From a phage: a stretch of DNA of 45,917 nt. Position 1 is the first letter of the stretch. The number at the start of each line of letters is the position of its first letter. Shown here one piece after another: positions 2,341 to 34,768 of this stretch. Under the pieces are notes generated by a model that worked only from the letters and a program-made list of their open reading frames with translations, did not search any database and was not told the DNA's origin. Position numbers and translations under genes: made by a program. The DNA is taken from NCBI GenBank assembly GCA_014750165.1, contig GCA_014750165.1_4319.1, one strand, 5' to 3'.

Positions 2341-2400
2341 ATAGCACTTTTTGCTAAAGCGTTAATCCAGTCTTCCTGTATAGTTAACTCATCGAAACGA
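2341..2400 (+). promoter_or_regulatory. box/-10/leader cassette (T-spacer variant)
   Basis: ATAGCACTTTTTGCTAAAG (2341-2359), a 22-nt spacer, TATAGT (2379-2384), then CATCGAAACGA (2390-2400). Confidence 0.6.
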
Positions 2401-2417: not shown

Positions 2418-2543
2418 ATGAAAGCAATCATCACAATTATGGCAGTGGCAGCGGCAACAACCCTTTCAATTACTTATGTTAAGTTTTGCATGTCAGTAGC
2501 TGAGAGCTACTCAATCTGGCAATTTGCAACTCATTGGCACTAA
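2418..2543 (+). CDS. 41-aa hydrophobic peptide (moron-like)
   Basis: ATG 2418 follows the cassette leader. Sequence MKAIITIMAVAAATTLSITYVKFCM... Below the ORF-track size cutoff. Sits between the major tail terminator and the chaperone gene. Confidence 0.45.
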   Translation: MKAIITIMAVAAATTLSITYVKFCMSVAESYSIWQFATHWH

Positions 2544-6660: not shown

Positions 6661-7416
6661 ATGTTAAGTCCAAAGTTTGAAAATCAGTTGCAAAGTCTTT
6701 TCCCAGGCGAGATTGTGACTCTAATCCAGGTTGACGGAACCTCCTTTGGCTCTCTCGTTTATTCGTTCCATAATGAGAACATTTCATACACGCCAGAAGA
6801 GATCATGCTTGCCCAAATGAATGGCGAGCCACTGCCAGAGAAAACGATTACATTCCGTGGTGAAGAGTACGGCCCAAGACCTTTCGGCATCTCTGGCATC
6901 AATATGACTTCTGATGGCAAGGCAAACAAAGTTACGCTAACTGTATCAAACGTAGACCAGAGGATTAGCGCCTTGATTCGAACATACAACGGACTTGTTA
7001 AAGCTAAGGTTACCATATGGATTACTACGCGAGATAACATCAATGAAGACGGGAGTATTGCTGATGGAGATTATCGCAAATTCGTTTACTTCATTGAGCG
7101 ACCTAAGCAGGTTGATTACAAAACTGCGTCATTTGAGCTTAGTAGCCCGATGGATATGGATGGCATTTACATACCCGCACGGCTTGTTCAGTCTGTTTGT
7201 TATTGGGCGTCAAGGGGTTGGTATCGTAGCGGTAATGGATGCGACTACGCTGGTAATCGTTATTTTGACAAAGACGACAACCCGGTCAGTGACCCTTCTC
7301 TAGATTTCTGTGCGGGCACTGTTAACAGTTGCAAGATTAGATTCGGCGAGAATAATCAGCTTTCATTTGGTGGATGCGCAGCAGCAAGCCTTCAAGCCAA
7401 AGCGAATCAATCATAG
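6661..7416 (+). CDS. minor tail protein (lambda gpL-like)
   Basis: ATG 6661 follows GGAG. Has LTVSN and a C-terminal Cys cluster (CYW..C..C..C) as in gpL. Its stop TAG is part of the repeat box. Confidence 0.85.
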   Translation: MLSPKFENQLQSLFPGEIVTLIQVDGTSFGSLVYSFHNENISYTPEEIMLAQMNGEPLPEKTITFRGEEYGPRPFGISGINMTSDGKANKVTLTVSNVDQRISALIRTYNGLVKAKVTIWITTRDNINEDGSIADGDYRKFVYFIERPKQVDYKTASFELSSPMDMDGIYIPARLVQSVCYWASRGWYRSGNGCDYAGNRYFDKDDNPVSDPSLDFCAGTVNSCKIRFGENNQLSFGGCAAASLQAKANQS

Positions 7417-7470
7417 CACTTTTTGTTAAGAGGAAGGCGCAGGAATGCGCTATCCTCTAATCTCTTAAAC
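7413..7470 (+). promoter_or_regulatory. degenerate box cassette (T-spacer variant)
   Basis: ATAGCACTTTTTGTTAAG, then a long GAGGA..GCGC/GCGC..TCCTC hairpin and a weak TATCCT hexamer at the 22-nt spacing. Confidence 0.4.
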
Positions 7471-7482
7471 TGGAGATTAAAA

Positions 7483-7968
7483 ATGAACTGGAATGAAATT
7501 TTCGAATACAGAGATGGCAAGATTTATTGGAAAGTTAGCCCTGGCAGGAGGGCTAAGGTTGGTTCGGAAGCTGGATCAAATCAAATAAAAGGGTATAGAT
7601 TTGTGAAATTTCACGGAGTTTTATATATGACACACAGGGTTATTTGGGAGATGCATAACTGTGAAATACCGCATGGAATGGAGGTTGACCATTTAAATCA
7701 CATTAGGGACGATAACAGGATAGAGAATTTAAGAGTTGTTACAAAGTCAATTAATCAGAGGAATGCATCTAAAAGAATTGATAATAAAAGCGGTTTTACA
7801 GGCGTTTCTTGGTATCCCAAATATTCAAAGTGGAATGCTTACGCGACAGTAAATTCCAAGAGGTTTAATCTTGGTTACTTTGAATCAAAGCAAGATGCCT
7901 ATGTGGCTGTTAAAAAATTTAGGTCCATAAATGATTTTCATAAAAACCATGGAGTTGATTTATGTTAA
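7483..7968 (+). CDS. HNH homing endonuclease with AP2-like DNA-binding domain (copy 1)
   Basis: ATG 7483 follows GGAG. Contains HRVIWE..EVDHLNHIRDDNRIENLR (HNH) followed by GVSWYPKYSKWNAY (AP2-like). Inserted between the tail genes L and K. Confidence 0.85.
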   Translation: MNWNEIFEYRDGKIYWKVSPGRRAKVGSEAGSNQIKGYRFVKFHGVLYMTHRVIWEMHNCEIPHGMEVDHLNHIRDDNRIENLRVVTKSINQRNASKRIDNKSGFTGVSWYPKYSKWNAYATVNSKRFNLGYFESKQDAYVAVKKFRSINDFHKNHGVDLC

Positions 7969-14744: not shown

Positions 14745-14810
14745 CTCGTTAGTTTAAGTGCGGCGATTATACCGCACAGAATTTATTGTTCTTTAGCAAT
14801 TCGTGCTATT
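14745..14810 (-). promoter_or_regulatory. box/-10/leader cassette
   Basis: Minus strand reads AATAGCACGAATTGCTAAAG, 22 nt (GTGCGG..CCGCAC hairpin), then TATAAT (14771..14766). Confidence 0.6.
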
Positions 14811-15519: not shown

Positions 15520-15568
15520 CCTAAATATACCCAAAGATACCCAGTTGTCTTTAGCAAATCGTGCTATT
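15520..15568 (-). promoter_or_regulatory. box/-10 cassette
   Basis: Minus strand reads AATAGCACGATTTGCTAAAG, 22 nt, then TATATT (15529..15524). Confidence 0.55.
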
Positions 15569-21261: not shown

Positions 21262-21292
21262 ATAGCACGAATTGCTAAGTTGGATTGTAGCA
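21262..21292 (-). promoter_or_regulatory. extended -10 promoter with an inverted orphan box at the predicted transcript start
   Basis: Minus strand reads TGcTACAAT (-10 at 21289..21284). The box (21262-21279) is in the opposite orientation to the gene and starts about 7 nt downstream of the hexamer. Confidence 0.45.
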
Positions 21293-22307: not shown

Positions 22308-22781
22308 TTACCCTTTAGCTTTTCGTGCTGCCTCGTTAGCGGCCTTAATCTTGCGCCATGATCGACACTCTGGCTTGGTGGCTAACTCAGCCTCAGTAAC
22401 CACGCGTAGCATGTGACGCTTTTTGCACCGGAGTGTCAGTGGCTTGCCGTTACCGTCAAATTGCAGGTCTGGTCGGCAGAATGTAGCACGAAAACCCTCT
22501 CCGTTTCGTTTGTAGTAGTTGTGCGACAGTTGAGCACCGCGCGCAGAAATCATACCACGCTTAAACCATTCTTCTACAGCCTGCGGAGTTACCTTTAACT
22601 TCTTTGCAATATTCGCCTTTGTGACGAAGAAATCAAGGAGCATCTCAAGCCGCGCGCGTAGCCCGGCTCTTACTTCATCTTTTAAAACGTAGTAGCCTGA
22701 AGGTCGTTTACGTTGTTTTTTGTCTTCAGTGCGGATAGTTCCGTTATTACCGTTAGTGGTTCGCTTGTCAACTGCATTCAT
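22308..22781 (-). CDS. helix-turn-helix DNA-binding protein
   Basis: ANIAKKLKVTPQAVEEWFKRG is HTH-like. Basic N- and C-termini. 157 aa. Confidence 0.6.
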   Translation of the reverse strand: MNAVDKRTTNGNNGTIRTEDKKQRKRPSGYYVLKDEVRAGLRARLEMLLDFFVTKANIAKKLKVTPQAVEEWFKRGMISARGAQLSHNYYKRNGEGFRATFCRPDLQFDGNGKPLTLRCKKRHMLRVVTEAELATKPECRSWRKIKAANEAARKAKG

Positions 22782-22793
22782 TTCATCACCTCA

Positions 22794-22840
22794 ATAGCAT
22801 TTTTTGTTAAAAGTCATTCAGATTTGATGGTAGTATTGTA
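22794..22840 (+). promoter_or_regulatory. box cassette (T-spacer variant) upstream of the helicase
   Basis: ATAGCATTTTTTGTTAAAA, a 21-nt spacer, then TAGTAT (22831-22836). Confidence 0.45.
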
Positions 22841-26448: not shown

Positions 26449-26700
26449 ATGTTGGGTTTAGATTTTCAGCCAGAGCATTACGATTTAGCATATGGTAAAA
26501 GTGGTGCAAAGTTTAGAGCGATCCCTATTGCTGACTGGTTCCCTCCTGATTATGTGGATGTGAACGCAAAAACTAAAGACGGCAATTGGGTGCAGATTTA
26601 TTACTCGCCAGCATGTGGAAACCTTTGTATGACTGACCTTGATCAGAAATTAGCAATTAGTGCGGAAGTTATCGACTACTGGTTGAAAGAAGTTGAATGA
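26449..26700 (+). CDS. hypothetical protein
   Basis: ATG 26449 lies 6 nt after AAGGA (track start is TTG 26443). Confidence 0.55.
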   Translation: MLGLDFQPEHYDLAYGKSGAKFRAIPIADWFPPDYVDVNAKTKDGNWVQIYYSPACGNLCMTDLDQKLAISAEVIDYWLKEVE

Positions 26701-26783
26701 AGAGCCTGATACTAGTAGCATTAGTCCCACTGTTTAGCTTTACTATCTTATACTTTATCGTAATGAATTAAGGAACTTATATA

Positions 26784-27920
26784 ATGGCAACTGCAAAAAT
26801 CACTAACGAAGAGCTGCGTGAAGAGCTTGCTAATGGCATGACAAACAAGGCAATCGCAGAGAAATACGGAATGAACATTCGCAACGTTGAATTGCGTCGT
26901 AGTAAATTGGCAAAGAGTGGAGAATTGCACGGAAACCCAGGTATCAAGAAGTTAGTTCCTGACGGTTATATGGTTAAGGGAACCTCCACGATGATTGATG
27001 CGGATGGTAACGAGAAGCTGCGCTGGGTTAAAACCTCTGTAGACAATGAGCGACTTGAGGTTTTAATGGAGCAAGCTCGAGAAGCATTTTGCTCTGATTT
27101 GCCAAAGGCTATTCCATCTGAATCACCGAATGTTAACTTTGATGATAACACGCTTGCGATGTATCCAGTTTTTGATTTACACATTGGGGCGATGGCTCAC
27201 AAACATGAGTGTGGCGAAAACTATGATACAGCAACAGCAGAGAAAGTAATGAATGGGTTCTTTGACTACGCTGTTGATAAGGCTCCAAACTCTAAGAATG
27301 CTGTATTGGTATTGGGTGGTGATTTCCTGCATTACGACTCTCTGGAGGCTAAAACCCCGGCATCAGGTCATATCTTAGATTCTGACAGTCGTTACGCCAA
27401 GATTGTTTATGTTGCAATCCGGTCAGTGCGTCGTGCCATTTCTCGAATGATGGAAAAGCACCAAGTTATTGAAATTAAAGTAATAAGTGGCAATCACGAC
27501 GAGGCAGGAATGGTTTGGCTCCGCGCTGCACTTGCTGCATTTTATGAAGATGAGCCTCGCGTAAATGTTGATGTTAGCCCAGCCGCAATGATGATGACCA
27601 GCTTTGGAACGACGCTTATTGGATACACTCACGGGCACCAAATGCGGAAAGCCGATACTCGACTAACTGTTATGGCAACTGATTTTCGTAAGTTATTTGG
27701 CCAAAGTGAGTATGTTTACACACATAGTGGCCACTGGCATTCGCAGAAGATTACAGAAACAAACTTGGGAATTGATGAGGTTCATGGGCAGCTTGGAAGC
27801 CCTGACGCGTACTCCGCAAATGGCGGTTGGCGTTCTCAACGTCAAGCGGCAGTCATTGTCTACCATAAAGAATTCGGTGAAGTTGGCCGATTCATTTGTC
27901 GCCCTAAAATGTTTGGCTAA
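26784..27920 (+). CDS. metallophosphoesterase with N-terminal HTH
   Basis: DLHIG, GGDFLH, GNHD and GHWH match calcineurin-like motifs. The N-terminal NKAIAEKYGMNIRNVELRR is HTH-like. Confidence 0.7.
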   Translation: MATAKITNEELREELANGMTNKAIAEKYGMNIRNVELRRSKLAKSGELHGNPGIKKLVPDGYMVKGTSTMIDADGNEKLRWVKTSVDNERLEVLMEQAREAFCSDLPKAIPSESPNVNFDDNTLAMYPVFDLHIGAMAHKHECGENYDTATAEKVMNGFFDYAVDKAPNSKNAVLVLGGDFLHYDSLEAKTPASGHILDSDSRYAKIVYVAIRSVRRAISRMMEKHQVIEIKVISGNHDEAGMVWLRAALAAFYEDEPRVNVDVSPAAMMMTSFGTTLIGYTHGHQMRKADTRLTVMATDFRKLFGQSEYVYTHSGHWHSQKITETNLGIDEVHGQLGSPDAYSANGGWRSQRQAAVIVYHKEFGEVGRFICRPKMFG

Positions 27921-27985
27921 TAGCGCTTTTTGTTAAAACGATACCCGCGAAAGCGGGTATTATTGTTTTATCGAAACGGCAGGGG
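27919..27985 (+). promoter_or_regulatory. box/-10/leader cassette (T-spacer variant)
   Basis: AATAGCGCTTTTTGTTAAAA, 22 nt (ATACCCGC-GAAA-GCGGGTAT hairpin), TATTAT (27958-27963), then TATCGAAACGG. Confidence 0.55.
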
Positions 27986-28002
27986 GATTGAAATGAATTG
28001 GC

Positions 28003-28485
28003 ATGATTTTTTTATACTATAAGGATGGAAAGGTTTTCTGGAGAGATCCGCACTGCACGAGATTGAAGCCAGGTGATGAGGCTGGTAGTAGGCACCATAG
28101 GGGTTATTGGTATATTCGTAGATATGACAAAACAATGTCAAGGCACCGAATCGTATGGGAGATGCACAACGGAACAATACCAGACGGTATGGAGATAGAT
28201 CATATAAATCACGTGCCTGGTGATGACAGAATTGAAAACCTAAGAATGGTCACAAGAAGGCAAAACAATCAAAACAAAAAATTAAATGAAAGAAATACAA
28301 GCGGACACGTCGGGGTTAGCTGGAACAAGAAGACAAACAAATGGAGAGCAATGATAGGCATAAGGGGAGAGGACGGAAAGAGGAAAACTTTATACGTTTA
28401 TTATGGTGATTCTTTCGATGATGCGGTATCAGCAAGAAAGAAAGCAGAGGCTGAGCACTCGTTTCATGAAAATCACGGTAAATAG
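28003..28485 (+). CDS. HNH homing endonuclease with AP2-like domain (copy 2)
   Basis: HRIVWE..EIDHINHVPGDDRIENLR followed by GVSWNKKTNKWRA. The RBS-backed ATG at 27993 is out of frame by one across a T7 run (28007-28013). Confidence 0.8.
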   Translation: MIFLYYKDGKVFWRDPHCTRLKPGDEAGSRHHRGYWYIRRYDKTMSRHRIVWEMHNGTIPDGMEIDHINHVPGDDRIENLRMVTRRQNNQNKKLNERNTSGHVGVSWNKKTNKWRAMIGIRGEDGKRKTLYVYYGDSFDDAVSARKKAEAEHSFHENHGK

Positions 28486-28544
28486 CACTTTTTGCCTAAC
28501 TCATGCCGTAGAAATGCGGCATAATCACCAAATCGAAACGAGAT
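28480..28544 (+). promoter_or_regulatory. box/-10/leader cassette (T-spacer variant)
   Basis: AAATAGCACTTTTTGCCTAA, 22 nt (ATGCCG..CGGCAT hairpin), CATAAT (28520-28525), then AAATCGAAACGAGA. Confidence 0.55.
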
Positions 28545-28555
28545 GAGGAATTGTA

Positions 28556-29029
28556 ATGATTTATGTATTTGATATCGATGGAACTATAGCTAATAATGAG
28601 CATAGAAGCCACCTCTTGCCATCCAGTGACCTTCACTTGACTTCAAGTTGGAAGGATTACAATAAAGCCTGTTCCGGAGACTCACCAATAATTCCAATGA
28701 TAAAAATGATGAATTCTTTAGCTGAGTCATCTCAAGTTTACATAATGACCTCAAGAAGTGATGAAGTTGAATGGAGAACGCTTCAGTGGCTTCATGATAA
28801 TGATGTTGAGTATGATTCGATATACATGAGAAGTCGACATGACAACCGAAAAGATTACAAAATAAAAGAGGAATGGCTTACTGAAATCAGTGGTGGCGAT
28901 AAAAGCAATGTGGTTATTTTTGAAGATAACCCGCAAGTAATCAAGCACTTAAGGAGCTTCGGATATACTGTAATGTCAGTTTGCGAATATGAAGACCTAC
29001 CTAAAGACTGCGAATCTCACGGAGAATGA
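28556..29029 (+). CDS. HAD-family phosphatase (polynucleotide 3'-phosphatase / nucleotidase-like)
   Basis: N-terminal VFDIDGT motif I; 157 aa. Confidence 0.65.
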   Translation: MIYVFDIDGTIANNEHRSHLLPSSDLHLTSSWKDYNKACSGDSPIIPMIKMMNSLAESSQVYIMTSRSDEVEWRTLQWLHDNDVEYDSIYMRSRHDNRKDYKIKEEWLTEISGGDKSNVVIFEDNPQVIKHLRSFGYTVMSVCEYEDLPKDCESHGE

Positions 29030-29031
29030 AA

Positions 29032-29586
29032 ATGACTAAATTATTTATCCTTAATGGCCCAGCTGGAGTTGGCAAGGACACTATAGCCGATATCATGGTT
29101 GAGACTGGTGTCGCCAAAGAAAAGGTATCATTCAAGTCACCAATGTTTAACGTTGTAAAAGGAATGCTATCAAGCGATGAATTTGATGGATTCATCAAGA
29201 ATTACGACAATAGAGACTATAAGGAATCACCTCATGGATTTCTTAGCGGTATGACAGTTCGTGAATTTATGATTTGGATTAGCGAGTCTGTAATGAAGCC
29301 AGTCTTTGGTGATGATGTTTTCGGTAAAAGGCTAGCACAGTCACTTGGTGATGGTTGCTACATTTGCGCTGACGGTGGGTTTGCTAGCGAGATTAAGCCA
29401 CTGATCGACACTGGTGTTGAGGTAACGTTAATCAGGTTGCATAGGGAAGGGTACACATTTTATGGCGATAGTCGCTCATACATTCACGGTGTGTGTGCAA
29501 GAGAGATTGATGTTCATGTTGTTGATGGTGATATTAATGGAACATCAGCATTGGTAAGGCACGTAATAAATAGCACGAATTGCTAA
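29032..29586 (+). CDS. P-loop (d)NMP kinase-like protein
   Basis: NGPAGVGKDT P-loop. ATG 29032 lies 7 nt after GGAG (track start 29026). The C-terminus is box-encoded NSTNC. Confidence 0.65.
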   Translation: MTKLFILNGPAGVGKDTIADIMVETGVAKEKVSFKSPMFNVVKGMLSSDEFDGFIKNYDNRDYKESPHGFLSGMTVREFMIWISESVMKPVFGDDVFGKRLAQSLGDGCYICADGGFASEIKPLIDTGVEVTLIRLHREGYTFYGDSRSYIHGVCAREIDVHVVDGDINGTSALVRHVINSTNC

Positions 29587-29632
29587 AGATAATATTAAAA
29601 ACTGGGTTATCATTAACACATCGAAACGAGAT
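29569..29632 (+). promoter_or_regulatory. box/-10/leader cassette
   Basis: AATAGCACGAATTGCTAAA, 22 nt, TATCAT (29608-29613), then ACATCGAAACGAGA. Confidence 0.6.
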
Positions 29633-29654
29633 GAACCAAACGAGGAAAAACAAA

Positions 29655-29831
29655 ATGACTAAAATGATTTACTGCACCAAGAACAACTCCAAGACGCTTC
29701 CATTTACAGTTAACCAGCCGTATAGCGCAGAGTACCAGGGCGATGGATACTACAAGATTTATGGCGACGATATGACGCACATCTTAGCGCCGATTGATGG
29801 TTCGTTAGTTGAATTTATTGTCGCTGACTAG
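29655..29831 (+). CDS. hypothetical protein
   Basis: ATG 29655 follows GAGGA. The track start 29580 lies inside the box. Confidence 0.55.
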   Translation: MTKMIYCTKNNSKTLPFTVNQPYSAEYQGDGYYKIYGDDMTHILAPIDGSLVEFIVAD

Positions 29832-34043: not shown

Positions 34044-34535
34044 CTACCTCATTCCGCTGTTCTTGTGGTATTTCGCATTAACCTCAGCAACAATCCTCGC
34101 CTCGCAAGCACAGATAAAGTCTATGAATGTTCCTAAACATACAATTTTCCCATCTATGCTAATTCTTGCCGACCACTTACCTCTAACATCCATGTTCACA
34201 CCAGTTACCCCTGGCTTTCTTCTTACATACCTTTTGAGATTCTTATGATTTTCCATGTGGCTAACTAGCCTTAAGTTTTCAATCCTATTATCAGACCTAT
34301 CTCCATTAATGTGGTCGATCTGCATTCCTTTTGGTATATCTCCGTTGTGAATAATCCAGACCGCTCGATGGCAATAAATTAGCTTATTCTTAACCCTAAA
34401 TGCCTTGTATCCATGGCTATGCATGCAGCCAGCCTCGTCACCAACTTTTACTTGGGATGAGTTATACTTTCTGTAAAGTTTCCCATCCTTATACTCTACG
34501 GCGTTTACAATATCCTCAACTAGAATGGCACACAT
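34044..34535 (-). CDS. HNH homing endonuclease with AP2-like domain (copy 3)
   Basis: HRAVWI..QIDHINGDRSDNRIENLR followed by GVNMDVRGKWSAR. Confidence 0.8.
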   Translation of the reverse strand: MCAILVEDIVNAVEYKDGKLYRKYNSSQVKVGDEAGCMHSHGYKAFRVKNKLIYCHRAVWIIHNGDIPKGMQIDHINGDRSDNRIENLRLVSHMENHKNLKRYVRRKPGVTGVNMDVRGKWSARISIDGKIVCLGTFIDFICACEARIVAEVNAKYHKNSGMR

Positions 34536-34696
34536 GATTCACACCCCCAATCCCCACAACAGAAATCTTCATCCTCTGACTGGAATTGCTTAGCCAAATC
34601 AATATCCAACTTTCCGCGGACAACAATTTCGGTGTAATCTTCGTTAAGTCCGATCAGCGCGCATTCGTGGCGTAACTCGTCTTTATCAATCTTCAT
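34520..34696 (-). CDS. hypothetical 58-aa protein with Cys-rich C-terminus
   Basis: ATG 34696 follows the cassette leader plus GAGGAG. Ends ..FCCGDWGCESCVPF. Its last 16 nt overlap the HNH start. Confidence 0.45.
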   Translation of the reverse strand: MKIDKDELRHECALIGLNEDYTEIVVRGKLDIDLAKQFQSEDEDFCCGDWGCESCVPF

Positions 34697-34699
34697 ATC

Positions 34700-34768
34700 T
34701 ATCTCCTCGTTTTGATGAGTTAACTATATCCTCCATGACCCCCAATGTCTTTGGCAAAAAGTGCTATT
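34700..34768 (-). promoter_or_regulatory. box/-10/leader cassette (T-spacer variant)
   Basis: Minus strand reads AATAGCACTTTTTGCCAAAG, 23 nt, TATAGT (34728..34723), then CTCATCAAAACGAGGAG. Confidence 0.55.

Follow-up and report, generated by a model that had tools for sequence, protein, structure and literature searches.

A probable free-standing HNH homing-endonuclease cassette with its own putative promoter box beside a resident box promoter in an Rtp-like coliphage

Introduction

T4-like phages contain free-standing homing-endonuclease genes, seg and mob, which are flanked by conserved genes and transcribed from promoters of their own. At class II activator promoters, CRP is positioned at -41.5, and the lambda cI protein, bound at OR2 and centred at -42, activates PRM.

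In T4-like phages, promoter-early stem-loop (PeSL) elements have been described as mobile regulatory cassettes (PMC2839356, PMC4122927). The phage TLS contains a 21-nt direct repeat (DR) with the consensus aaATAGCACnnnTTGnTAAAA that is oriented with transcription and lies about 76 nt from start codons (German, Misra, Kropinski et al., Phage 2024, PMC11447400). According to the middle triplet (AAA, TTT or GAA), the TLS repeats are divided into groups A, T and G, and the supplementary table of that study includes the forms analyzed here (PMC11447400). Such repeats also occur in T1, Rtp and Rogue1; no function was assigned to them, and a stoperator, an enhancer site or an UP element was suggested (PMC11447400). 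Promoter prediction by Niu (2014) and Kropinski (2012) was solely consensus-based.

Here we describe a stretch of 45,917 nt, called the window, from an Rtp/ACG-M12-like coliphage (Drexlerviridae, Braunvirinae). Its repeats, called boxes below, agree with the TLS repeat in consensus (aaATAGCACnnnTTGnTAAAA, many copies), orientation, distance and triplet subgroups. The box and its A/T/G subtypes have already been published for TLS; a full-text literature search with the box sequence yielded no relevant match. The analysis centered on positions 27919-28499. This region is probably a free-standing HNH homing-endonuclease cassette, consisting of its own T-group box, a terminator-like hairpin, a -10 hexamer, a leader and an ORF, and situated between the stop codon of an exonuclease gene and a resident T-group promoter.

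Results

Number and types of boxes

A scan with ATAGCACNNNTTGNTAA, allowing at most two mismatches, identified 20 boxes in the window. Shuffled sequences contained 1.68 +/- 1.15 boxes, and 0 of 100 attained 20. With ATAGCACTTTTTG and at most one mismatch, six T-type boxes were found, compared to 0.16 in shuffled sequences. The middle triplets of the other 14 boxes are GAA (10), TAA (2), GAT (1) and AAA (1). A first-pass annotation had distinguished two subtypes with 14 and 6 copies; both numbers were reproduced, far above the shuffled background, and its T-type box positions were right to within 1-2 nt. All 20 boxes are located at gene boundaries.

A larger set of 127 unique boxes was compiled from nine Braunvirinae genomes. 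In this set, the right arm is TGCTA in 39 of 44 GAA boxes, and it is TGTTA, TGCCT or TGCCA in 35 of 47 TTT boxes. The split between T and GAA boxes is a genuine class difference, in which the triplet correlates with the right arm.

Promoter-like geometry of the boxes

The T boxes and the G/A boxes have a common layout, i.e., the box, a spacer of 22 nt that often contains a hairpin, a -10 hexamer and the leader CATCGAAACGA, which follows the -10 hexamer in most window boxes. With one exception, a -10-like hexamer is present 21-23 nt after TTGnnA in all window boxes (19/20; TATAGT, TATTAT, TATAAT or CATAAT at the fixed offset). The spacing is exactly 22 nt in 17 window boxes and in 103 of 120 unique T, G and A boxes from the nine genomes. 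For 16 of the 20 boxes, the distance to a start codon on the same strand is 70-89 nt; for the box at 15567 it is 114 nt. The box at 27920 precedes the HNH start at 27993. To the box at 14809 no start codon was assigned. The box at 21262 has neither a downstream gene on the same strand nor a -10 hexamer at the usual spacing, and it is a misfit to the promoter model. Significantly stable hairpins were found in 8 of the 20 window boxes.

None of the window boxes has a -35 hexamer 16-18 nt upstream of the -10 hexamer, and a consensus promoter scan of the window called no box promoter; TTGCTA or TTGTTA is instead found 22 nt upstream. A canonical sigma-70 promoter was rejected because the -35 hexamer is lacking at this distance, although the -10 hexamer is present. 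A sigma-54 promoter (TGGCAC-N5-TTGC) was also rejected, as the box reads TAGCAC-N3-TTGC, with AG replacing GG and a spacer that is 2 nt too short.

The box palindrome TAGCA-N5-TGCTA is a 15-bp inverted repeat with half-sites 10 bp apart. Transcription would start at the A of CATCGAAAC, about 7 nt after the -10 hexamer, which corresponds to 27970 and 28532 for the two boxes that flank HNH copy 2. The center of the palindrome is located about 42 bp upstream of this predicted start. Because of this position and the lack of a -35 hexamer, the box would most likely be the site of a dimeric activator that stands in for the -35 contact, in the manner of class II activators and of lambda cI at PRM. 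The T boxes, in which the distal half-site is intact and the proximal half-site is degenerate, might represent a class of lower affinity or different timing.

The HNH gene at the exonuclease site

The features of this site and of the other T-type boxes and HNH genes are compiled in Table 1.

Table 1. Positions of the HNH genes, the T-type boxes and the flanking features in the window
Feature	Position	Strand	Basis
DNA repair exonuclease gene (homologue of T1 gp16 / rtp61), left flank	26784..27920	+	Annotation in Rtp, ACG-M12
Putative T-group promoter box ATAGCGCTTTTTGTTAA of the HNH cassette	27920..27936	+	Box scans
Spacer hairpin GATACCCGC-GAAA-GCGGGTAT, then T-rich run	27940..27969	+	Terminator-like flag
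Leader ATCGAAACGG and ribosome-binding site GGGGGA of HNH copy 2	27970..27992	+	Leader motif CATCGAAACGA
HNH copy 2, HNH_3, AP2-like C-terminal part	27993..28485	+	Pfam HNH_3 E=1e-20, PHROG 99
Resident T-group box ATAGCACTTTTTGCCTA, hairpin, -10 CATAAT (28520-28525), leader	28482..28555	+	Geometry and relatives
Polynucleotide kinase/phosphatase (HAD_PNKP) gene, right flank	28556..29029	+	Pfam PF25109 E=4e-17
HNH copy 1 cassette	7413..7968	+	T box 7413-7429, spacer hairpin, -10 TATCCT 7451-7456, ORF 7483-7968
HNH copy 3, no own box	34044..34535	-	Start overlaps end of 58-aa ORF 34520-34696
T box, putative first promoter of leftward small-gene operon	34751..34767	-	Relatives
T box of putative helicase promoter	22794..22810	+	TTT in 9/9 Braunvirinae genomes
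T box after major-tail-protein terminator	2341..2357	+	Before variable small membrane-protein slot
T-type boxes	2341, 7413, 22794, 27920, 28482	+	ATAGCACTTTTTG scan
Sixth T-type box, ATAGCACTTTTTG match	34755-34767	-	ATAGCACTTTTTG scan

The stop codon TAA of the exonuclease gene abuts the box at 27920. The spacer hairpin has a minimum free energy of -16.4 kcal/mol (z -4.7 versus shuffled sequences) and probably resembles a terminator for transcripts of the exonuclease gene. The 3' arm of the hairpin shares sequence with the -10 hexamer TATTAT (27958-27963), which sits 22 nt after TTGTTA. A run of seven T at 28007-28013 puts the family start (ATGAATTGG at 27993) in a different reading frame from the main ORF (28003-28485), as seen by comparison with TH30 and ACG-M12. 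Either the 5' end carries a +1 frameshift or the homopolymer was misread in sequencing, and copy 2 may be inactive. The gene shares 86-88% identity with its ACG-M12/SCS31 counterpart at this site; a PDB sequence search with copy 2 yielded no match. Its stop codon TAG falls inside the next box, at 28482, so that copy 2 is indeed bracketed by two T boxes, at 27920 and 28482, as the first-pass annotation had described.

Two gene orders were found at this site. The order exonuclease gene, own box with hairpin, HNH gene and resident box occurs in the window, ACG-M12, DTL, TH30 and T1. In Rtp, 12397V, T145P1, A110b and RobRod40, which have no HNH gene here, the exonuclease gene is followed by the resident T box and the next gene; in the first four of these, a near-identical promoter stands directly after the exonuclease gene. 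The resident promoter would serve the PNKP phosphatase gene in the window and a gp14-like gene in Rtp; the breakpoint between the two arrangements falls at the leader. Because HNH-free relatives keep the resident promoter directly after the exonuclease gene, the two boxes that flank copy 2 appear to be separate promoters, of which the HNH gene brought one and the other is resident, and not a target-site duplication. It had been proposed that the insertion duplicated a box or brought its own. The second part is supported, whereas the first is not, as the flanking boxes share only the family-wide core of 13 nt.

Other HNH genes and their empty sites

The window contains three HNH_3 genes (7483-7968+, 27993/28003-28485+ and 34044-34535-). 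All three had been designated HNH-AP2 genes. The HNH_3 domain (PF13392) was found in each copy, with E-values from 1e-20 to 5e-20 (PHROG 99), but the AP2 domain (PF00847) scored 20.0 and 21.5 bits in copies 1 and 2, below the Pfam cut-off of 33.3, and copy 3 gave no Pfam match to it. Some HNH orthologues have been labelled 'AP2 domain protein' by depositors. The three paralogues are 36-43% identical, and none is the nearest relative of another. A recent intragenomic duplication was rejected in view of this identity and of closer same-site relatives in other phages.

Copy 1 is inserted exactly between the stop codon of tail gene L and the start codon of tail gene K. The combination of box and HNH gene is found at this L/K site in the window, DTL, JulesPiccard and Rtp. 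In 12397V, T145P1, Msk and A110b, the empty site has no box: about 10 nt, including a ribosome-binding site, separate the stop codon from ATG. Because the empty sites lack a box, copy 1 appears to have brought its own T box. Other contents of the L/K site are a virion-protein gene with a G box and a terminator (the gp45 cassette of ACG-M12 and SU57) and a reverse-oriented Rha gene. Phage 2725-N35 is about 88% identical to the window over tail L/K, the sole region compared.

Between copy 3 and the upstream T box lies the 58-aa gene, and copy 3 is predicted to depend on translational coupling, downstream of a conserved operon promoter. In Rtp, 12397V and Msk, the empty site consists of a stop codon, 12 nt and ATG, without a box. 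The claim that all HNH genes lie behind T boxes is therefore correct in that the nearest upstream box is of the T type for all three, but no box belongs to copy 3 itself, and another gene lies in between.

Sites beyond the three copies yielded a mixed picture. The HNH genes between TerS and TerL of Rtp and RobRod40 have a T box, and the empty TerS/TerL site of the window has none. The HNH gene after TerL in RobRod40 has its own T-like box and a resident TAA-type box downstream; the difference in type rules out a duplication of the resident box. The empty TMP/M site has no box. Among the 22 HNH loci in Braunvirinae and Nouzillyvirus genomes, 11 are without a box. Breakpoints coincide with a box at the exonuclease site and on the 5' side of the L/K cassettes, whereas several empty sites are free of the motif.

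At the exonuclease, L/K and copy-3 intergenic sites, the HNH gene is present or absent among relatives, with conserved flanking genes. HNH genes are sporadic at the same locus across subfamilies, and the same distribution has been reported (PMC13164509). The proposal that units of cassette and gene are mobile is supported: HNH genes with their own box were found at the L/K, TerS/TerL and exonuclease sites, and relatives without the HNH gene lack that box.

Resident T boxes and the association with HNH genes

The T boxes appear to be mainly resident promoters of core genes. Those of the helicase, the left operon and the region downstream of the exonuclease gene persist in four HNH-free genomes, and the four HNH-free relatives carry 2-6 T boxes each. 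The orthologue of the box at 34751..34767 is of the T type in 6 of 6 relatives compared, four of which are without HNH genes. The helicase box is divergent from a gene for a Cro-like regulator (22308-22781, PHROG 2856). The slot after the box at 2341 holds an ORF of 41 aa (2418-2543) in the window, as had been annotated; the T box at this slot is kept in Rtp, ACG-M12, T145P1, RobRod40 and DTL, in which the downstream genes differ. No terminator is evident after this ORF, while the gp45 cassette has both a box and a terminator. The idea that the T subtype marks HNH genes and morons is not supported.

Quantification of the association did not yield uniform results. Within the window, a Fisher test (3/3 HNH genes behind 6/20 T boxes) gave p ~0.018. 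The value was about 0.08 when copy 3 was excluded, and about 0.07 when orthologous sites in the nine genomes were counted once. Of five independent sites with an HNH cassette that has its own box, four have a T or T-like box and none a GAA box; the GAA type was found in 0 of 11 HNH own boxes. These values are no more than suggestive of an excess of T boxes on HNH cassettes. The residual T bias is a weak trend, which we leave as chance or as shared ancestry of the site promoters.

Possible origins of the arrangement

In the explanation we prefer, the HNH gene would spread by homing into the intergenic site downstream of the exonuclease gene and would carry its promoter along. The common box core would allow the crossover to fall anywhere within the box. 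We infer the promoter role, the activator reading at -42 and homing from the sequences of the window and its relatives.

A box-mediated modular shuffling, in which promoter/stem-loop modules provide short homologies for cassette exchange and no endonuclease is needed, has a fair amount in its favor and might well contribute, though we would bet against it as the main process. It is compatible with homing and not exclusive of it. The L/K site with its alternative contents (HNH gene and T box, virion-protein gene with G box and terminator, reverse Rha gene, or nothing) fits such an exchange, and so does the fusion of the same resident T promoter to PNKP or the gp14-like gene at the leader. In addition, the box type differs between orthologues: the gp14-like gene has GAA, TAA, AAA or TTT, and a 75-aa gene has TTT in 12397V and GAA in DTL. 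The strong hairpins in 8/20 boxes and the PeSL concept of T4-like phages (PMC4122927, PMC2839356) point in the same direction. However, the empty L/K, TerS/TerL and copy-3 sites are without a box, so that box homology was lacking on one or both sides of these insertions. Moreover, 13-19 nt of shared sequence is little for recombination to be efficient, and neither recombination intermediates nor recent events were observed in the compared genomes.

A more general model would regard the box as the operator of a dimeric factor, possibly the Cro-like regulator, that drives nearly all Drexlerviridae promoters from -42. The T boxes would be a regulatory class with a variant half-site, and the modules would be portable junctions for cassettes, with HNH genes favoring T. 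We regard this model as rather unlikely in its full extent.

It is also unlikely, and slightly more so, that T and G/A boxes are temporal or regulatory promoter classes (e.g., factor-independent versus activator-dependent) and that T-class expression has been selected for homing endonucleases. The correlated degenerate proximal half-site of the T boxes, the invariant type at some core promoters (helicase TTT in 9/9, DNA helicase AAA in 6/6) and the lack of GAA among the 11 HNH own boxes would agree with this possibility. Yet T boxes precede functionally diverse genes (helicase, lysis region, tail-module small gene, early small genes), the box type switches at other orthologous genes, and the T/HNH enrichment is not significant at the level of independent sites (p ~0.07).

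The first-pass annotation had proposed that the box is a landing site, i.e., that the HNH enzymes recognize or cleave T-type boxes and thus accumulate there, and it had suggested an alignment of HNH-free relatives to see whether the empty sites coincide with boxes. Copy 2 does lie exactly at the resident T box, with a crossover that is inseparable from the 13-nt core, its arrangement is kept in ACG-M12, DTL, TH30 and T1, and the T or T-like own boxes at 4/5 independent sites would be expected as well. In contrast, the empty sites of copies 1 and 3, as well as TerS/TerL and TMP/M, are not at boxes, half of the HNH loci (11/22) have no box nearby, four further T boxes in the same genome are unoccupied and presumably uncut, and HNH-free genomes keep their 2-6 T boxes. 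A landing site is thus mostly refuted and highly improbable.

A target-site duplication by a transposition-like HNH insertion is hardly credible, because the two direct copies of ATAGCRCTTTTTG that flank the HNH gene share only the 13 nt that are the consensus of all six T boxes and even differ at one base, they diverge right after the core (TTAAAACGATACCC versus CCTAACTCATGCC), neither copy 1 (single box, empty site without a box) nor the HNH gene after TerL in RobRod40 has a matching second box, and there is no transposase and there are no terminal inverted repeats.

Discussion

The window provides a worked example of homing-endonuclease genes of T1-like phages that appear to carry their own promoter module. 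In addition, the family-wide repeat known from TLS has the geometry of an activator-dependent promoter, which makes the transcription of T1-like phages, with their very few canonical promoters, directly testable. The claim of a special box subtype for HNH genes and morons adds little, as the subtype has been published, is found mostly on core genes and has a statistically weak link to HNH genes.

The window boxes resemble the TLS repeat in consensus, orientation, distance to the start codon and subdivision by triplet. The TLS study is silent on the 22-nt spacing to the -10 hexamer, the palindromic arms, the spacer hairpins and a relation to HNH genes (PMC11447400). T boxes form the majority in TLS and other Tempevirinae, whereas T and G are about equally frequent in Braunvirinae.

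Short composite promoter/terminator-like stem-loops, repeated at gene boundaries next to indels and replacements between close relatives, may link the boxes to PeSL elements. Nevertheless, the sequences are unrelated and the phage family is different. Unlike in PeSL elements, the stem-loop in the window is part of the promoter spacer or surrounds the -10 hexamer, and several insertion sites are free of the motif in their empty form.

With class II activator promoters, the boxes share an inverted repeat at about -42 from the predicted start, a good -10 hexamer and the lack of a -35 hexamer. In this comparison, the start is a predicted one and the box-binding protein is hypothetical, with the Cro-like regulator (22308-22781) as the candidate.

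The seg and mob genes of T4 differ from the window HNH genes in the type of nuclease (GIY-YIG for seg and the mob HNH type for mob, compared to HNH_3/AP2-like) and in their promoters, which are not of the Drexlerviridae box type; cleavage and homing by the HNH proteins of T1-like phages are putative. Similarities are the intergenic insertion from stop to start codon with a promoter of its own, the sporadic occurrence at the same locus among close relatives, and the presence of several distant paralogues per genome.

The HNH cassette behind the exonuclease gene

The interval 27919-28499 is a cassette of a putative homing-endonuclease (HNH) gene, copy 2, with its own T-group promoter box, inserted directly in front of a resident T-group promoter. 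The first-pass annotation had placed copy 2 between two T boxes, and both were recovered, at 27920 and 28482. It had called the three paralogs HNH-AP2 genes; all three carry a strong HNH_3 domain (Pfam), but the AP2 matches stayed under the Pfam threshold. Over its full length, region 26700-29700 shares about 90% identity with Escherichia phage vB_EcoS_ACG-M12, and it also matches many Rtp-like and T1-like coliphages. The window therefore represents all or most of a Braunvirinae (Drexlerviridae) genome. Its gene order is that of Rtp and ACG-M12.

Phage Rtp, which lacks this HNH gene, has one T box directly behind the exonuclease gene, and from TTTTTG onward this box matches the second box of the window (CCTAACTCATGCCGTA.AAATGCGGCATAATCACCAAATC). 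In 12397V, T145P1, A110b, and RobRod40, likewise without the HNH gene, the resident promoter also stands behind the exonuclease gene. Upstream of it, the cassette is present in the window, ACG-M12, DTL, TH30 (Nouzillyvirus), and T1, in the order box (TTTTTGTTAAAAC type, CATTT or CCTTT in some), hairpin (C/G)CCGCGAAAGCGG(G/C), TATTATTGTTTTAT, leader, and HNH gene; the hairpin and the T run behind it resemble a terminator. A target-site duplication was ruled out, because the two boxes diverge beyond the 13-nt consensus core, the only part they share, and differ at one base even within it. As both boxes share this core, the crossover can be located only to within it.

The family-typical start of copy 2 at 27993-28022 (ATGAATTGGCATGAT, MNWHD...) meets a stop after 9 codons because the T7 run is one base longer than in TH30, ACG-M12, and DTL, and the long ORF restarts at ATG 28003. 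The extra base reflects a homopolymer sequencing error or, alternatively, a genuine 5′ frameshift, which may weaken or inactivate the gene. The HNH promoter and hairpin of phage T1 (L022, 1860-1945) are almost identical to window positions 27915-27995. T1 was absent from the best 60 records of the HNH protein search (matches listed down to about 48% identity), and its HNH protein thus appears to have diverged much further; between T1 and the window, conservation is far stronger in the regulatory module than in the HNH gene it drives. Downstream, a PNKP-phosphatase and dNMP-kinase-like gene pair, with a T box at its left border and a GAA box at its right border, forms a present-or-absent cassette. 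In Rtp, 12397V, and others, the pair is missing and the T promoter is joined directly to the gp14-like gene.

The box as part of a putative promoter module

Twenty boxes were found in the window with ATAGCACNNNTTGNTAA at up to two mismatches (1.7 expected), and the six T boxes with ATAGCACTTTTTG at up to one mismatch (0.16 expected), so that the numbers and positions reported earlier were borne out. The middle of the remaining 14 boxes is GAA, TAA, GAT, or AAA. All copies have the layout ATAGCAC-NNN-TTGCTAA, a 22-nt spacer, and a -10-like hexamer (TATAGT, TATTAT, TATAAT, or CATAAT), which is followed by about six bases, in most copies by CATCGAAACGA, and by a ribosome-binding site. The spacer is exactly 22 nt long in 17 of 19 window copies and, across nine Braunvirinae genomes, in 103 of 120 unique boxes of the T, G, and A types. 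In 16 of the 20 window boxes, a distance of 70-89 nt separates the box from the start codon. A -35 hexamer at 16-18 nt was not found at the boxes, and the box sites were not called in a consensus promoter scan. TAGCA-N5-TGCTA forms an inverted repeat whose half-sites are separated by one turn of the helix. With a transcription start about 7 nt beyond the -10, the repeat would be centered near -42, where class II activators and, at OR2, lambda cI are positioned.

Significantly stable hairpins in the spacer or around the -10 were predicted for 8 of the 20 boxes (z below -4 versus shuffles). Their placement varies: the 3′ arm abuts the -10 in some boxes, and the hexamer lies within the loop in others. 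Possible roles are termination of the upstream gene, processing, or promoter control.

Positions of boxes and associated features in the window
Feature	Position	Strand	Remark
T box	2341	+	
T box	7413	+	stable hairpin
T box	22794	+	
T box	27920	+	stable hairpin
T box	28482	+	stable hairpin
T box	34767	-	
Box	14809	-	stable hairpin
Box	17413		stable hairpin
Box	25581		stable hairpin
Box	33040	-	stable hairpin
Box	36832		stable hairpin
Perfect GAA box	21262-21278		
HNH copy 1	7483-7968	+	
HNH copy 2	27993/28003-28485	+	
HNH copy 3	34044-34535	-	
T7 run in copy 2	28007-28013		
Tail L end	7405-7416		
41-aa ORF	2418-2543		behind tail-module T box
Cro-like regulator gene	22308-22781		region 22308-22810
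PNKP/dNMP-kinase-like pair	28482-29650		

The perfect GAA box, kept in all relatives, lies between the tail-fiber and primase genes (both on the minus strand) and has neither a -10 at 22 nt nor a plus-strand gene downstream. Viewed on the minus strand, it is just downstream of a TACAAT hexamer, an operator-like position. Divergent from the helicase gene lies a conserved gene for a Cro-like helix-turn-helix regulator (PHROG 2856; T1 gp23/rtp52 homolog), and the always-TTT helicase box directly adjoins the ribosome-binding site of this regulator gene. The regulator is a candidate box-binding protein.

Empty sites and the origin of the boxes

The first-pass annotation had offered two readings, the box as a landing site of the endonuclease and the gene with its box as a mobile unit. 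At the empty site of copy 1 (12397V, T145P1, Msk, A110b), about 10 nt, including a ribosome-binding site, separate the stop of tail gene L from the start of K, and no box is present. The L/K junction contains a T box and an HNH gene in the window, DTL, and JulesPiccard, a CTTAT box and a distant HNH gene in Rtp, another gene with a GAA box and a terminator in ACG-M12 and SU57, and a reverse-oriented Rha gene with a canonical promoter in IME253. Therefore, the box arrives together with the gene. The empty site of copy 3 (Rtp, 12397V, Msk) consists of a stop, 12 nt, and an ATG, again without a box. The empty-site comparison supports the mobile unit for copies 1 and 2. Copy 3 lacks an own box, and its start lies within the end of the 58-aa gene before it. 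The landing-site reading fails at the empty sites of copies 1 and 3 and at other HNH sites in relatives, which do not coincide with boxes.

In genomes with the HNH cassette, tail L ends with CAA TCA TAG, and in empty or gp45-carrying genomes with CAG AGY TAA, the amino acids being unchanged; this could be a co-converted flank or could guard the HNH-carrying allele from cleavage. Phage 2725-N35 (MN840485.1) is about 88% identical to the window in the tail L/K region, the only region compared, and lacks copy 1 there. The 41-aa ORF shares the N-terminal signal-like MKAII.IMA with Rtp rtp34, a 128-aa lipoprotein-like protein, and the slot after the major tail gene contains different small membrane proteins in different relatives.

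The three HNH proteins of the window are 36-43% identical. A neighbor-joining tree was built from 27 HNH genes, taken from TLS and from the non-Tempevirinae genomes compared. In this tree, close relatives are only genes that share a site between phages: window and DTL at L/K; window, ACG-M12, and TH30 after the exonuclease gene. These results indicate that the HNH genes are old and were placed independently, and they rule out recent duplications that copied a box. Very different HNH lineages lie behind one conserved site-specific promoter, for T1 and DTL versus the window after the exonuclease gene and likewise for Rtp and JulesPiccard at L/K.

The T type and its association with HNH genes

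The T type is a real class. Of 44 GAA boxes, 39 have TGCTA as the right arm, but only 11 of 47 TTT boxes do (TGTTA 23, TGCCT 10, TGCCA 2); therefore, the distal half-site of the T type is intact and the proximal one mostly degenerate. The common spacing, -10, and leader are retained. The box type can vary at orthologous genes, by upstream promoter module.

T boxes are mostly core-gene promoters, and genomes without any HNH gene contain 2-6 of them. The helicase promoter is TTT in 9/9 genomes, and other core promoters are also stably T. The leftward operon has as its first promoter the T box 230 nt upstream of copy 3; all six relatives examined have the T type there, and four of these have no HNH gene. 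T and G boxes are about equally frequent in Braunvirinae, and T boxes account for 11-12 of 12-14 boxes in Tempevirinae.

For the proposed link with HNH genes, a bias was seen. Among 22 HNH loci, 11 have an own box (seven Braunvirinae and Nouzillyvirus genomes), which were grouped into five independent sites: L/K (TTT, TTT, TTA), after the exonuclease gene (TTT, TTT, ATT, CTT), TerS/TerL (TTT, TTT), after TerL (TTT, then ATG in place of TTG), and TMP/M (TAA). GAA was found in none of these 11 boxes. T or T-like boxes occur at 4 of 5 HNH sites versus roughly 16 of 47 non-HNH sites (one-sided hypergeometric p about 0.07), a bias that is worth noting but not established.

Comparison with known repeats

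Reading the boxes as recombination junctions like the PeSL elements (PMC2839356, PMC4122927) would complement the cassette reading and is reasonable but unproven. In phage TLS, a 21-nt direct repeat, aaATAGCACnnnTTGnTAAAA, has been described at 21 places, oriented with transcription and about 76 nt upstream of start codons, with groups A, T, and G (middle AAA, TTT, and GAA) and with similar repeats in T1, Rtp, and Rogue1; a stoperator, an enhancer site, or an UP element was suggested, and the role was left undecided (PMC11447400, section 17). The box and its T subtype were thus already known, and only the proposed HNH link is new here; the T subtype is a family-wide promoter variant found mainly on core genes.
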